Assembly: GCF_003334815.1 (NCBI RefSeq)
Contig: NZ_QOWO01000034.1
Source: Escherichia coli
GTDB taxonomy: Bacteria > Pseudomonadota > Gammaproteobacteria > Enterobacterales > Enterobacteriaceae
Length of the DNA: 40,339 nucleotides
Strand: one strand, 5' to 3'
Below the pieces are notes generated by a model, which did no database searches, was not told the origin of the DNA, and saw only the letters and a program-made list of their open reading frames with translations. Within the stretch, counting starts at the first letter, position 1, and each line of letters opens with the position of its first letter. Shown here piece after piece: positions 1,092 to 7,368 of the stretch. Position numbers and translations under genes: made by a program.

Positions 1092-2483
1092 ATGACAACC
1101 GAAACGCGTTCCCTCTATAGTCAACTTCCGGCTATTGATCGCTTATTGCGCGATAGCTCCTTCCTTTCTTTGCGTGATACTTATGGTCACACCCGCGTGG
1201 TGGAATTGTTGCGTCAGATGCTCGACGAAGCGCGAGAAGTGATTCGTGGCAGCCAGACGCTGCCTGCGTGGTGTGAAAACTGGGCGCAAGAAGTCGATGC
1301 CCGGTTGACGAAAGAAGCGCAGAGCGCGCTGCGTCCGGTGATCAACCTGACGGGAACCGTGCTGCATACCAACCTTGGGCGAGCTTTACAGGCGGAAGCC
1401 GCGGTGGAAGCCGTTGCGCAGGCTATGCGTTCGCCAGTGACCCTCGAGTATGATCTGGACGACGCCGGACGCGGACATCGCGATCGGGCGCTGGCGCAGC
1501 TGCTGTGCCGTATTACGGGGGCGGAAGATGCCTGTATCGTCAATAACAATGCGGCGGCGGTGTTATTGATGTTGGCGGCCACTGCCAGCGGAAAAGAGGT
1601 GGTGGTATCTCGCGGCGAACTGGTGGAGATTGGCGGCGCGTTTCGTATTCCCGATGTTATGCGTCAGGCAGGCTGCACCCTACACGAAGTAGGGACCACC
1701 AACCGCACGCACGCGAATGATTATCGTCAGGCGGTGAATGAAAATACCGCACTGTTGATGAAAGTACATACCAGTAACTACAGCATTCAGGGGTTCACCA
1801 AAGCGATAGATGAAGCGGAACTGGTGGCGCTCGGCAAAGAGCTGGATGTTCCCGTAGTGACTGATTTAGGCAGTGGCTCGCTGGTCGATCTTAGCCAGTA
1901 CGGTTTGCCGAAAGAGCCAATGCCGCAGGAGTTGATTGCGGCGGGCGTCAGTCTGGTGAGTTTCTCCGGCGACAAGTTGTTAGGCGGGCCGCAGGCAGGA
2001 ATTATTGTTGGTAAAAAAGAGATGATCGCCCGCCTGCAAAGCCACCCGCTGAAGCGTGCATTACGCGCGGATAAAATGACCCTCGCGGCGCTGGAAGCCA
2101 CGTTGCGTCTTTATTTACACCCTGAAGCTCTGAGTGAAAAATTACCGACCCTGCGCCTGCTTACCCGCAGCGCAGAGGTCATTCAAATCCAGGCACAACG
2201 TTTACAGGCCCCCCTTGCCGCACATTACGGCGCGGAGTTTGCGGTACAGGTTATGCCATGTCTTTCGCAGATTGGCAGTGGTTCGCTGCCGGTTGATCGC
2301 CTGCCGAGCGCGGCATTAACGTTTACACCCCATGATGGACGCGGTAGCCACCTTGAGTCATTAGCCGCCCGCTGGCGTGAATTGCCAGTGCCGGTGATTG
2401 GTCGTATTTATGACGGACGATTGTGGCTGGATTTACGCTGCCTTGAAGATGAGCAACGGTTTTTGGAGATGTTGTTGAAATGA
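1092..2483 (+). CDS. selA: L-seryl-tRNA(Sec) selenium transferase (selenocysteine synthase)
   Basis: 463 aa ORF recognised as SelA; stop overlaps selB start (ATGA). Confidence 0.95.
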
Positions 2484-4324
2484 TTATTGCGACTGCCGGA
2501 CACGTTGACCACGGCAAAACAACCTTATTGCAGGCGATTACTGGCGTAAATGCTGACCGTCTGCCGGAAGAAAAAAAGCGCGGCATGACCATCGATCTCG
2601 GCTATGCCTACTGGCCGCAGCCGGATGGTCGCGTGCCTGGTTTTATCGACGTTCCCGGTCATGAAAAGTTTCTTTCCAACATGCTGGCGGGCGTTGGTGG
2701 TATCGATCACGCGCTGTTGGTGGTGGCGTGCGATGACGGCGTGATGGCACAGACCCGTGAGCATCTGGCGATTTTGCAGCTGACCGGTAACCCGATGCTG
2801 ACAGTGGCGCTGACCAAAGCCGATCGCGTGGACGAAGCGCGTGTTGATGAGGTTGAACGCCAGGTAAAGGAGGTTCTGCGGGAATACGGTTTTGCTGAGG
2901 CAAAACTGTTTATCACCGCAGCAACCGAAGGTCGGGGAATGGATGCCCTGCGCGAGCATCTGCTTCAGTTGCCGGAACGCGAGCACGCCAGCCAACATAG
3001 TTTCCGCCTCGCGATTGACCGCGCATTTACCGTAAAAGGTGCCGGGCTGGTCGTCACCGGTACGGCGTTAAGCGGGGAAGTGAAGGTAGGCGATTCACTC
3101 TGGCTGACTGGTGTAAATAAACCGATGCGTGTACGTGCGCTGCATGCGCAAAACCAGCCAACAGAAACCGCCAATGCCGGGCAGCGTATCGCGCTTAACA
3201 TCGCGGGTGATGCGGAAAAAGAGCAGATTAACCGTGGCGACTGGCTGCTTGCCGATGTGCCGCCAGAGCCGTTCACACGGGTGATTGTCGAGCTTCAAAC
3301 CCATACACCGCTGACCCAGTGGCAGCCGCTGCATATTCACCACGCCGCCAGCCACGTCACGGGACGCGTTTCACTGCTGGAAGATAACCTTGCTGAACTG
3401 GTCTTCGACACCCCGTTATGGCTGGCAGATAACGACCGCCTGGTATTGCGCGATATCTCTGCCCGCAACACGCTGGCCGGAGCGCGCGTCGTGATGCTTA
3501 ACCCGCCGCGTCGCGGTAAACGTAAGCCGGAATATCTGCAATGGCTGGCGTCTCTTGCACGGGCGCAGAGCGATGCCGATGCGTTATCTGTTCATCTGGA
3601 ACGCGGCGCGGTTAACCTTGCGGATTTCGCCTGGGCGCGCCAGCTCAACGGCGAAGGGATGCGCGAATTGCTGCAACAGCCTGGTTATATTCAGGCTGGT
3701 TATAGCTTGTTGAATGCGCCGGTTGCCGCCCGCTGGCAGCGGAAAATTCTCGACACATTAGCGACTTATCATGAGCAACATCGCGATGAACCTGGCCCTG
3801 GGCGCGAACGTCTGCGACGTATGGCGTTGCCAATGGAAGATGAAGCGCTGGTACTGTTGCTGATTGAAAAGATGCGCGAAAGCGGCGACATCCACAGCCA
3901 TCACGGCTGGCTGCATCTGCCAGATCACAAAGCGGGCTTCAGCGAAGAGCAGCAGGCCATCTGGCAAAAAGCAGAGCCACTGTTTGGTGACGAACCGTGG
4001 TGGGTGCGTGACCTGGCAAAAGAGACGGGAACCGACGAGCAGGCAATGCGCCTGACTCTACGCCAGGCGGCGCAGCAAGGAATAATTACCGCGATCGTTA
4101 AAGATCGTTATTACCGTAACGATCGGATTGTCGAGTTTGCCAATATGATCCGCGATCTCGATCAGGAGTGTGGTTCAACCTGCGCGGCGGATTTCCGCGA
4201 TCGCTTAGGCGTAGGCCGAAAGCTGGCAATTCAGATTCTGGAATATTTTGACCGCATTGGCTTTACGCGTCGTCGTGGAAATGATCATTTATTGCGCGAC
4301 GCATTATTATTTCCGGAAAAATAA
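2480..4324 (+). CDS. selB: selenocysteine-specific translation elongation factor
   Basis: 614 aa ORF with N-terminal GTPase P-loop [11 protein letters not shown], DxxG and NKxD motifs; recognised as SelB. Confidence 0.95.
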
Positions 4325-4382
4325 GGAAATGATTAATTAAGTTTTAAAATAAATTAATACAAAATTCTTATGAATTTAAAAA

Positions 4383-4416
4383 AAGCACATTGTTTAATGA
4401 ATACAATGTGCTTTTT
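4383..4416 (+). terminator. candidate intrinsic terminator downstream of selAB (possibly bidirectional)
   Basis: Inverted repeat agcacattg ... caatgtgc with ~11 nt loop, A-run upstream and TTTTT downstream, in an AT-rich intergenic region. Confidence 0.5.
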
Positions 4417-4513
4417 ATTAGATTAATTTTGATAATCAATAATACTGATCATATTTTCGAATGAAAATCCTCAGTAAGCTGCCCGCCCTTTTTTACACTT
4501 TCAGGAGTGTGTT

Positions 4514-5665
4514 ATGGCAGCTTCAACGTTCTTTATTCCTTCTGTGAATGTCATCGGCGCTGATTCATTGACTGATGCAATGAATATGATGGCAGATTAT
4601 GGATTTACCCGTACCTTAATTGTCACTGACAATATGTTAACGAAATTAGGTATGGCGGGCGATGTGCAAAAAGCACTGGAAGAACGCAATATTTTTAGCG
4701 TTATTTATGATGGCACCCAACCTAACCCCACCACGGAAAACGTCGCCGCAGGTTTGAAATTACTTAAAGAGAATAATTGCGATAGCGTGATCTCCTTAGG
4801 CGGTGGTTCTCCACACGACTGCGCAAAAGGTATTGCGCTGGTGGCAGCCAATGGCGGCGATATTCGCGATTACGAAGGCGTTGACCGCTCTGCAAAACCG
4901 CAGCTGCCGATGATCGCCATCAATACCACGGCGGGTACGGCCTCTGAAATGACCCGTTTCTGCATCATCACTGACGAAGCGCGTCATATCAAAATGGCGA
5001 TTGTTGATAAACATGTCACTCCGCTGCTTTCTGTCAATGACTCCTCTCTGATGATTGGTATGCCGAAGTCACTGACCGCCGCAACGGGTATGGATGCCTT
5101 AACGCACGCTATCGAAGCATATGTTTCTATTGCCGCCACGCCGATCACTGACGCTTGTGCACTGAAAGCCGTGACCATGATTGCCGAAAACCTGCCGTTA
5201 GCCGTTGAAGATGGCAGTAATGCGAAAGCGCGTGAAGCAATGGCTTATGCCCAGTTCCTCGCCGGTATGGCGTTCAATAATGCTTCTCTGGGTTATGTTC
5301 ATGCGATGGCGCACCAGCTGGGCGGTTTCTACAACCTGCCACACGGTGTATGTAACGCCGTTTTGCTGCCGCACGTTCAGGTATTCAACAGCAAAGTCGC
5401 CGCTGCACGTCTGCGTGACTGTGCCGCTGCAATGGGCGTGAACGTGACAGGTAAAAACGACGCGGAAGGTGCTGAAGCCTGCATTAACGCCATCCGTGAA
5501 CTGGCGAAGAAAGTGGATATCCCGGCAGGCCTACGCGACCTGAACGTGAAAGAAGAAGATTTCGCGGTATTGGCGACTAATGCCCTGAAAGATGCCTGTG
5601 GCTTTACTAACCCGATCCAGGCAACTCACGAAGAAATTGTGGCGATTTATCGCGCAGCGATGTAA
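4514..5665 (+). CDS. yiaY: iron-containing (group III) alcohol dehydrogenase family protein
   Basis: 383 aa [22 protein letters not shown]...; GGGSPHD and metal-binding His motifs typical of Fe-ADH; recognised as YiaY. Confidence 0.9.
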
Positions 5666-5829
5666 TCATCATTTCCACAACGGCTGGCAAATTGTCAGCC
5701 GCTTTTTCAACTATCTCTGTAACCCTTGCCCGTAAATTCGTGATAGCTGTCGTAAAGCTGTTACCGACTGGCGAAGATTTCGCCAGTCACGTCTACCCTT
5801 GTTATACCTCACACCGCAAGGAGACGATC

Positions 5830-7368
5830 ATGACCAATAATCCCCCTTCAGCACAGATTAAGCCCGGCGAGTATGGTTTCCCCCTCAAGTTAAAAGCCCG
5901 CTATGACAACTTTATTGGCGGCGAATGGGTAGCCCCTGCCGACGGCGAGTATTACCAGAATCTGACGCCGGTGACCGGGCAGCTGCTGTGCGAAGTGGCG
6001 TCTTCGGGCAAACGAGACATCGATCTGGCGCTGGATGCTGCGCACAAAGTGAAAGATAAATGGGCGCACACCTCGGTGCAGGATCGTGCGGCGATTCTGT
6101 TTAAGATTGCCGATCGAATGGAACAAAACCTCGAGCTGTTAGCGACAGCTGAAACCTGGGATAACGGCAAACCCATTCGCGAAACCAGTGCTGCGGATGT
6201 ACCGCTGGCGATTGACCATTTCCGCTATTTCGCCTCGTGTATTCGGGCGCAGGAAGGTGGGATCAGTGAAGTTGATAGCGAAACCGTGGCCTATCATTTC
6301 CATGAACCGTTAGGCGTGGTGGGGCAGATTATCCCGTGGAACTTCCCGCTGCTGATGGCGAGCTGGAAAATGGCTCCCGCGCTGGCGGCGGGCAACTGTG
6401 TGGTGCTGAAACCCGCACGTCTTACCCCGCTTTCTGTACTGCTGCTAATGGAAATTGTCGGTGATTTACTGCCGCCGGGCGTGGTGAACGTGGTCAATGG
6501 CGCAGGTGGGGTAATTGGCGAATATCTGGCGACCTCGAAACGCATCGCCAAAGTGGCGTTTACCGGCTCAACGGAAGTGGGCCAACAAATTATGCAATAC
6601 GCAACGCAAAACATTATTCCGGTGACGCTGGAGTTGGGCGGTAAGTCGCCAAATATCTTCTTTGCTGATGTGATGGATGAAGAAGATGCCTTTTTCGATA
6701 AAGCGCTGGAAGGCTTTGCACTGTTTGCCTTTAACCAGGGCGAAGTTTGCACCTGTCCGAGTCGTGCTTTAGTGCAGGAATCTATCTACGAACGCTTTAT
6801 GGAACGCGCCATCCGCCGTGTCGAAAGCATTCGTAGCGGTAACCCGCTCGACAGCGTGACGCAAATGGGCGCGCAGGTTTCTCACGGGCAACTGGAAACC
6901 ATCCTCAACTACATTGATATCGGTAAAAAAGAGGGCGCTGACGTGCTCACAGGCGGGCGGCGCAAGCTGCTGGAAGGTGAACTGAAAGACGGCTACTACC
7001 TCGAACCGACGATTCTGTTTGGTCAGAACAATATGCGGGTGTTCCAGGAGGAGATTTTTGGCCCGGTGCTGGCGGTGACCACCTTCAAAACGATGGAAGA
7101 AGCGCTGGAGCTGGCGAACGATACGCAATATGGCCTGGGCGCGGGCGTCTGGAGCCGCAACGGTAATCTGGCCTATAAGATGGGGCGCGGCATACAGGCT
7201 GGGCGCGTGTGGACCAACTGTTATCACGCTTACCCGGCACATGCGGCGTTTGGTGGCTACAAACAATCAGGTATCGGTCGCGAAACCCACAAGATGATGC
7301 TGGAGCATTACCAGCAAACCAAGTGCCTGCTGGTGAGCTACTCGGATAAACCGTTGGGGCTGTTCTGA
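5830..7368 (+). CDS. aldB: aldehyde dehydrogenase B
   Basis: Track ORF 5692..7368 trimmed to ATG at 5830 ([15 protein letters not shown]...) preceded by aaggag RBS; gives the expected 512 aa; ALDH motifs (ELGGKSP, catalytic Cys region). Confidence 0.9.

Follow-up and report, generated by a model that had tools for sequence, protein, structure and literature searches.

The genes selA and selB are followed in Escherichia coli by yiaY, and the spacer between selB and yiaY differs sharply in composition from the genes on either side of it. This raises the question of what the spacer does: whether it ends the transcription of the upstream operon, serves and restrains the expression of the downstream gene, or does both. 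We addressed this question in a stretch of 40,339 nucleotides from an E. coli genome (contig NZ_QOWO01000034.1; hereafter the window, whose first letter is position 1). The reading that we consider likely is that the spacer comprises the selAB terminator followed by the promoter and leader of yiaY, and that it lies under H-NS that silences yiaY. Structure, conservation, covariation and strand bias were computed in this analysis.

Layout and composition of the locus

Over 231 bases around the spacer the window is 100% identical to E. coli MG1655, and coordinates can be converted as MG1655 minus-strand position = 3762341 − window coordinate. The preliminary description of this DNA had singled out a 189-bp AT-rich spacer between selB and yiaY, and the composition of the locus confirms it: GC content is 24.9% in the spacer and 17.6% in its part at 4325–4460, compared with 56.4% in selB, 50.5% in yiaY and 51.0% in the window as a whole. 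The 5′ part of yiaY is also AT-rich (39–45% GC). No other 189-bp stretch of the window has a lower GC content than the spacer; stretches of this length that are equally low make up 0.18% of the total, every one of them at the selB/yiaY locus, and the next-lowest region of the window has a minimum of 27.5%. The features of the locus are listed in Table 1.

Table 1. Features at and around the selB/yiaY spacer, in window coordinates.
Feature	Position	Strand	Basis or remark
selA ORF	1092–2483	+	E. coli RefSeq annotation
selB ORF	2480–4324	+	ORF list and E. coli RefSeq annotation
H-NS ChIP-chip region, anaerobic	~3149–5325	.	Myers et al. 2013 (PMC3688515), converted
H-NS ChIP-chip region, aerobic	~3700–5305	.	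Myers et al. 2013 (PMC3688515), converted
TAA stop of selB, where the selAB coding sequence ends	4322–4324	+	
selB/yiaY spacer	4325–4513	+	189 bp, 24.9% GC
AT-only inverted repeat	4332–4358	.	K-12 form ATTAATT-N13-AATTAAT, degenerate
Conserved block AATTAATACAAAAT, 5′ of the hairpin within the selB 3′ UTR	4352–4365	+	Alignment
A7 tract 5′ of the stem	4378–4384	+	Able to pair with the U-tract, extending the helix
Core terminator hairpin	4385–4411	+	9-bp stem GCACAUUGU/ACAAUGUGC, 9-nt loop
U-tract TTTTTATTA, tail UUUUUAUUA	4412–4420	+	Directly 3′ of the stem
Candidate sigma-70 promoter TTGATA-17 nt-TATTTT	4429–4457	+	Consensus match, 9/12; hits no commoner than in shuffles
Block GATCATATTTT with GATC Dam site	4447–4457	+	Conserved in all genera with yiaY after selB
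Block GTA(A/T)GCTGCC	4474–4483	+	Conserved in all genera with yiaY after selB
yiaY Shine-Dalgarno AGGAG (4503–4507) and start codon (4514–4516)	4503–4516	+	
yiaY ORF (Fe-dependent alcohol / L-threonine dehydrogenase)	4514–5665	+	RefSeq annotation
Rho-dependent termination region	4913	+	Adams et al. 2021 (PMC7815308); within yiaY and the H-NS region
yiaY terminator-like hairpin CGGCUGGCAAAUUGUCAGCCG, then CUUUUU	5681–5707	+	−14.6 kcal/mol, z −4.4; 3′ edge of the cassette

A conserved hairpin downstream of selB

The spacer had also been described as containing a palindromic terminator flanked by A- and T-runs. Both the palindrome and its flanks are present: positions 4380–4416 form a perfect inverted repeat, AAAAAGCACATTGT-(9 nt)-ACAATGTGCTTTTT, with two 14-nt arms (4380–4393 and 4403–4416) that are 100% complementary around a 9-nt loop, with seven A at 4378–4384 and with TTTTT at 4412–4416, after which ATTA follows. 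Within this repeat, GCACATTGT (4385–4393) pairs with ACAATGTGC (4403–4411) to form the core stem, in which four of the nine pairs are G-C. The full hairpin has a folding energy of −16.8 kcal/mol for the + strand and −15.9 kcal/mol for the − strand (z ~ −5.8 and −5.6, respectively), and none of 200 shuffles folded as well; stripped of its A/U extension, the core stem retains −10.6 kcal/mol. On the sense strand the stem-loop is stable, with z scores of −4 to −5.8. It lies on the strand of selB and just 3′ of the last gene of the transcription unit, the distance from the selB stop being 56 nt to the A-extended helix, 61 nt to the core stem and 93–96 nt to the end of the U-tract. A generic terminator scan did not return the hairpin because its 9-nt loop exceeds the upper limit of 8 nt (the standard scan allows 3–8 nt). 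An Rfam scan of positions 3800–5000 at a permissive threshold yielded as its sole match a Plasmodium family at chance level (20.3 bits against a gathering threshold of 70, E = 0.34).

Evidence for selection on this structure comes from an alignment of 16 sequences from Escherichia, Citrobacter and Intestinirhabdus, in which a helix of 14 pairs was scored. In this alignment, 95.1% of cells in the helix are paired. The corresponding figure for 500 shuffles is 87.1 ± 1.1%, none of them reaching the observed value, and the paired cells drop to 35–59% when the 3′ partner is slid. Compensatory double changes were found in six of the 14 pairs, and a single pair never varies across the 16 sequences. 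For example, columns 13/31 change from A-U to G-C, columns 16/28 occur as G-C, A-U and C-G, and columns 17/27 as G-C and U-A, while the stems of K-12 and B2-type E. coli are themselves separated by two compensatory double changes. Despite this turnover in sequence, the energy of the core stem stays at −10.4 to −11.9 kcal/mol across relatives, and the columns of the T-tract either do not vary or show at least 90% conservation. Two species, Escherichia sp. MOD1-EC7003 and Citrobacter sp. Cu233, have lost most of yiaY, with its last 58–77 codons left, and the spacer and hairpin are intact in both; the hairpin is therefore tied to selB and not to yiaY.

The covariation, the bias towards the + strand described below, the near-invariant T-tract, the stable stem energy and the retention of the hairpin without yiaY support its assignment as the intrinsic (Rho-independent) terminator of selAB, in agreement with the terminator reading of the preliminary description. 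The 3′ end of the selAB transcript is predicted at ~4416–4419, which corresponds to ~3757925–3757922 (−) in MG1655. Given a stem with four G-C pairs in nine and a loop of 9 nt, termination at the hairpin may be incomplete.

Two other identities for the palindrome were considered and rejected. A REP-like repeated element does not fit a sequence found at a median of one place per genome and a maximum of two, and an 18-codon ORF running across the hairpin (4370–4426, MNLKKAHCLMNTMCFLLD) lacks its ATG when the B2-type allele is aligned with it.

A different hairpin, rich in GC, is found upstream of yiaY in Enterobacter soli, E. asburiae TN152, Yokenella and a Pluralibacter MAG, where it occupies the place of the Escherichia/Citrobacter terminator hairpin. 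This hairpin (e.g. CTCGCAGGCTTAA...TTAAGCCTGCGAG) has no T-tract on either strand.

Direction of termination

The runs on both sides of the stem had led to the proposal that the palindrome terminates transcription in both directions. As a structural possibility this stands for the K-12 haplotype, which has seven A on one side and five T on the other. As a conserved function it does not stand: the A-tract varies, the wobble pairs fit RNA of the + strand only, and the neighbouring genes are not convergent. The strongest form of the proposal is that the hairpin is a true bidirectional terminator, selected additionally against antisense transcription that runs from the yiaY promoter or 5′ region towards selB. 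H-NS-bound AT-rich DNA harbours spurious promoters, and in alleles of the K-12 type the − strand hairpin, at −15.9 kcal/mol, is followed by seven U. A promoter-like match on the − strand (TTTTCA-17-TATTAT at 4467–4439) is directed towards the hairpin; however, this match is no better than chance, and selB and yiaY are co-directional, so that a convergent gene is lacking.

Comparison among relatives also speaks against this form of the proposal. The 5′ A-tract, which would become the antisense U-tract, is not conserved and reads AAGGA in B2-type E. coli and AATCA or AATAA in Citrobacter. Among the G·U cells of the helix, 17 are valid solely in + strand RNA versus two solely in − strand RNA, and the − strand fold is weakened to −7.1 kcal/mol in E. 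albertii and −9.0 kcal/mol in E. coli AF57; it is weak in B2-type E. coli and in Intestinirhabdus. Selection for termination in both directions is thus unlikely in our judgement, and the A7/T5 symmetry is a property of the K-12-type allele rather than a conserved bidirectional design.

Transcript ends at the locus

Direct evidence from published transcript ends is thin. No 3′ end of selB is listed by Term-seq in Adams et al. 2021 (PMC7815308), nor is there an entry at the hairpin, and the portion of the TRS tables (PMC10687069) covered here holds only a selB-internal end and none at the hairpin. For the lists as covered, a missing 3′ end is weak evidence, because selAB is weakly expressed and the lists are thresholded. 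Among the operons listed in the portion of the SMRT-Cappable-seq tables (PMC6131387) covered here, b3590 occurs in one and b3591 in two, and none includes b3589 (yiaY). Such a listing would fit a transcript that ends ahead of yiaY, but as evidence it is weak, as yiaY is barely expressed. A literature search on the selAB terminator returned nothing relevant.

Further downstream, a bicyclomycin-sensitive Rho termination region has been mapped inside yiaY, at MG1655 3757428(−), or window position 4913 (Adams et al. 2021, supplementary file 2, PMC7815308). A Rho site ~400 nt into yiaY implies that low-level transcription enters the gene and is then aborted, and part of this Rho-terminated transcription could be read-through of the hairpin.

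H-NS occupancy and probable silencing of yiaY

The preliminary description had suggested that a nucleoid protein bound to the AT-rich tract silences yiaY. This suggestion matches published data, from which we took the H-NS occupancy, the expression changes that depend on hns/stpA and Ler, and the Rho site. Using ChIP-chip, Myers et al. 2013 (PMC3688515, Table S3) reported H-NS regions at 3755059–3756664 under aerobic and at 3755039–3757215 under anaerobic conditions (U00096.2). Coordinates were brought from U00096.2 to U00096.3 with an offset of 1977 bp, a conversion of our own that is approximate to a few bp. After conversion, these regions, 1.6–2.2 kb in length, enclose the spacer, so that it is covered by H-NS both with and without oxygen; the spacer itself lies at ~3755851–3756039 in U00096.2, near the centre of the aerobic region. 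The high-affinity H-NS motif is not enriched in the spacer: a tCGATAAATT-like sequence has one match there, with two mismatches (4419–4428), and the count in the window is 53 versus 42 ± 7 expected, a chance level at which no nucleation motif stands out.

An IHF ChIP-chip peak (U00096.2 3756423–3756791, window ~3573–3941; Myers et al. 2013, Table S4, PMC3688515) is located in the 3′ half of selB, adjoining the H-NS region.

Expression data connect yiaY to H-NS. Myers et al. 2013 (PMC3688515, Table S11) list yiaY with a ratio of 0.15, O2-dependent only in the Δhns ΔstpA strain. In EPEC E2348/69, the H-NS antagonist Ler raises yiaY expression 5–9 fold, and yiaY is among the few genes outside the pathogenicity islands on the Ler list (PMC3891560). 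Both the Δhns ΔstpA and the Ler data are genome-wide screens, and a literature search found no dedicated promoter or fusion study of yiaY in an hns mutant.

Spacer haplotypes and the yiaY cassette

The locus is single-copy and was found in 5,409–5,411 of 5,426 complete E. coli genomes. Its spacer falls into two haplotype groups with few intermediates, one of ~4,000 genomes that are at least 95% identical to K-12 and one of ~1,340 genomes near 87% identity, the latter including Nissle, ATCC 25922 and other B2-like strains. Divergence between the two is concentrated in a short segment. When the window was compared with three further loci (L003, L004 and L008), identity between K-12 and the B2 type was 98.6% over the last 425 bp of selB, 77.4% from the selB stop to the GATCAT block (4325–4446), 97% from that block to the yiaY ATG and 96.6% over the first ~430 bp of yiaY.

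Beyond E. coli, a scan of GTDB species genomes with the C-terminal half of SelB identified 80 Enterobacteriaceae loci. Loci in which yiaY is the next gene after selB come from Escherichia species, many Citrobacter, Intestinirhabdus, Yokenella, two Enterobacter and a Pluralibacter MAG, and a few other loci have a partial or more distant yiaY-like match. GC content in the 200 bp after selB is 24–39% where an intact yiaY lies directly downstream versus 46–63% where there is no adjoining yiaY sequence. In Lelliottia, an Enterobacter MAG and others, the aldB leader begins within ~10–20 nt of selB, and this leader is homologous to window ~5736–5831, which in E. coli is the side of the yiaY-aldB spacer nearest to aldB. 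The AT-rich spacer, yiaY and the hairpin at 5681–5707 thus constitute a cassette of ~1.4 kb (4325 to ~5735) that is either present or absent between selB and aldB. The indel was compared with four of the loci (L028, L030, L066 and L081), and other genera differ in their selB-aldB content.

In another account of the composition, the spacer is AT-rich because intergenic DNA is relaxed or subject to mutation bias, or because the yiaY cassette is of foreign origin, and H-NS binding is incidental and has no regulatory effect. The segment between the selB stop and GATCAT is indeed hypervariable in E. coli, at 77.4% identity versus 96–99% in its flanks, the spacer and yiaY behave as a 1.4-kb indel, and some strains carry an insertion in or at the spacer, either of IS1 or of a GC-rich repeat. 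However, the length of the spacer and the order of its blocks are almost free of indels across Escherichia, Citrobacter and Intestinirhabdus, low GC is kept in every genus with yiaY after selB, and the expression data tie yiaY to H-NS/StpA and to Ler. We therefore regard an AT-rich spacer with no regulatory consequence as improbable, and favour silencing of yiaY by H-NS.

Individual strains carry disrupted versions of the spacer. In E. coli 2017.15.02CC (L002 3120–3880), IS1 sits exactly at the selB stop, changing TAA to TAG, and a deletion extends from the spacer into yiaL. In strain MB57, the match to the spacer is lost ~22 nt in. Citrobacter amalonaticus S646 (L027 ~3000–3140) has a GC-rich insertion of ~140 bp in the spacer, upstream of the hairpin, part of which (AAAGCCAACGCATCTGCAACCTGAAGTATAACGAGTAT) we take to resemble the ERIC/IRU repeat consensus.

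The promoter side of the spacer

Between the hairpin and the yiaY start codon, the blocks GATCATATTTT and GTA(A/T)GCTGCC maintain a fixed spacing around variable sequence in all cassette-bearing genera. The two blocks are probably promoter or operator elements of yiaY, and the GTA(A/T)GCTGCC block may contain a sequence similar to a −10 element (TAAGCT/TATGCT) or be an operator. The candidate −10 elements are TATTTT at 4452–4457, found by the consensus scan together with TTGATA at 4429–4434, and TAAGCT/TATGCT at 4475–4480. A literature search found no experimentally mapped start site for yiaY, and the promoters named yiaYp4 and yiaYp6 in one paper seem to have been predicted computationally.

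Several further candidates on this side of the spacer were rejected. RNAalifold detected no conserved RNA structure in the leader of yiaY (−0.58 kcal/mol, no compensatory pairs), and an 8-bp pairing (AAGCTGCC/GGCAGCTT) that would enclose the Shine-Dalgarno sequence and start codon is not kept in Citrobacter. An FNR box (consensus TTGAT-N4-ATCAA) has a match with two mismatches at 4429–4442, but neither the B2 type nor Citrobacter has kept the match, and it is at chance level; the window contains 30 such matches, close to the 20.7 ± 4.2 of shuffles, of which 2 of 100 were as high. In addition, yiaY is absent from the tables of E. coli FNR ChIP peaks and predicted sites (Myers et al. 2013, PMC3688515). 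In Shigella flexneri, anaerobic induction of yiaY (log2 3.2) is FNR-dependent, as judged from expression data only (PMC4229854).

The first part of the spacer contains a conserved AT-only inverted repeat immediately past the selB stop, with the block AATTAATACAAAAT after it. It is degenerate in K-12, while a clean form, ATTAATTCA-N7/9-TGAATTAAT, is present in B2-type E. coli (L008 ~2930–2957), E. whittamii and Citrobacter. As RNA, the repeat folds at −0.5 kcal/mol in K-12 versus −8.3 kcal/mol in the B2 type, and its form would suit either an operator or a hairpin in RNA. It is conceivable, though we think it distinctly improbable, that the first 93–96 nt after selB, with this repeat, the AATTAATACAAAAT block and the U-tailed terminator hairpin, give rise to a 3′-UTR-derived small RNA, or that the AT-only repeat is the operator of a yiaY regulator. 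If either were true, the two deeply diverged E. coli haplotypes, which share 77% identity across 122 nt, would be alleles that differ in function.

We think it very improbable that the palindrome acts as DNA, as the site of a dimeric yiaY regulator or as a cruciform, rather than as an RNA terminator: its 14-bp arms match perfectly, it lies ~100 bp ahead of the yiaY start and its loop sequence (ATGAA) is fairly conserved, but its stem varies by compensatory substitutions where a protein operator would keep sequence rather than pairing, its G·T positions pair solely in the RNA of one strand, and an invariant T-tract directly 3′ of the stem is the signature of a terminator.

Proposed function of the spacer

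In the favoured reading, a terminator followed by an H-NS-silenced promoter, the two halves of the spacer would serve different genes. The first half, from 4325 to ~4420, would be the 3′ untranslated end of the selAB mRNA, closing in the Rho-independent terminator. Polymerase arriving from selA-selB would release its transcript at ~4416–4419, which would insulate yiaY from selAB transcription. The second half, ~4420–4513, would hold the promoter and leader of yiaY. In K-12, an extended H-NS filament would coat the AT-rich tract and also the 5′ part of yiaY, itself AT-rich, and keep the gene nearly silent under laboratory conditions, and the few transcripts that enter yiaY would be stopped by Rho ~400 nt in. 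Removal of H-NS and StpA, or supply of Ler, would derepress yiaY and make its anaerobic induction visible. Within this scheme, we infer the exact 3′ end, the efficiency of termination, the position of the promoter and its possible occlusion by H-NS.

As a terminator the hairpin is an ordinary member of its class, and the H-NS occupancy and H-NS/StpA dependence have already been published genome-wide, so that the locus has little importance beyond annotation. The hairpin provides a well-supported 3′ boundary for the selAB operon. Coverage by H-NS would explain why yiaY is silent in K-12 cultures despite the conservation of the gene. The locus could be used as a short teaching example in which a terminator shields a one-gene cassette, silenced by H-NS, from the housekeeping operon that precedes it.

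Comparison with known systems

The selB hairpin resembles other intrinsic terminators of E. coli in having a stem-loop and U-rich tract on the sense strand just past the last stop codon of an operon, an upstream A-tract that can lengthen the helix, and compensatory changes that keep the structure. It differs from them in its AT-rich stem, with four G-C pairs in 9 bp, and in its 9-nt loop. The K-12 allele also shares with bidirectional intrinsic terminators the order of A-tract, hairpin and T-tract (A7, hairpin, T5) and a similar folding strength on both strands. However, such terminators usually lie between convergent genes, whereas selB and yiaY are co-directional, both on the + strand; moreover, the A-tract is unconserved and pairing on the − strand has been lost in several Escherichia lineages. 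Like REP and ERIC sequences, the hairpin is an intergenic palindrome past the 3′ end of a gene, but it is single-copy, AT-rich rather than GC-rich and followed by a T-tract.

On the yiaY side, the locus resembles xenogeneic-type loci silenced by H-NS/StpA together with Rho. It is the most AT-rich point of 40 kb and has an H-NS region of more than 1 kb centred on it, yiaY expression changes in the Δhns ΔstpA strain and is activated by Ler, and Rho terminates transcription inside the gene. What is silenced here, however, is one conserved metabolic gene and no large horizontally acquired island.
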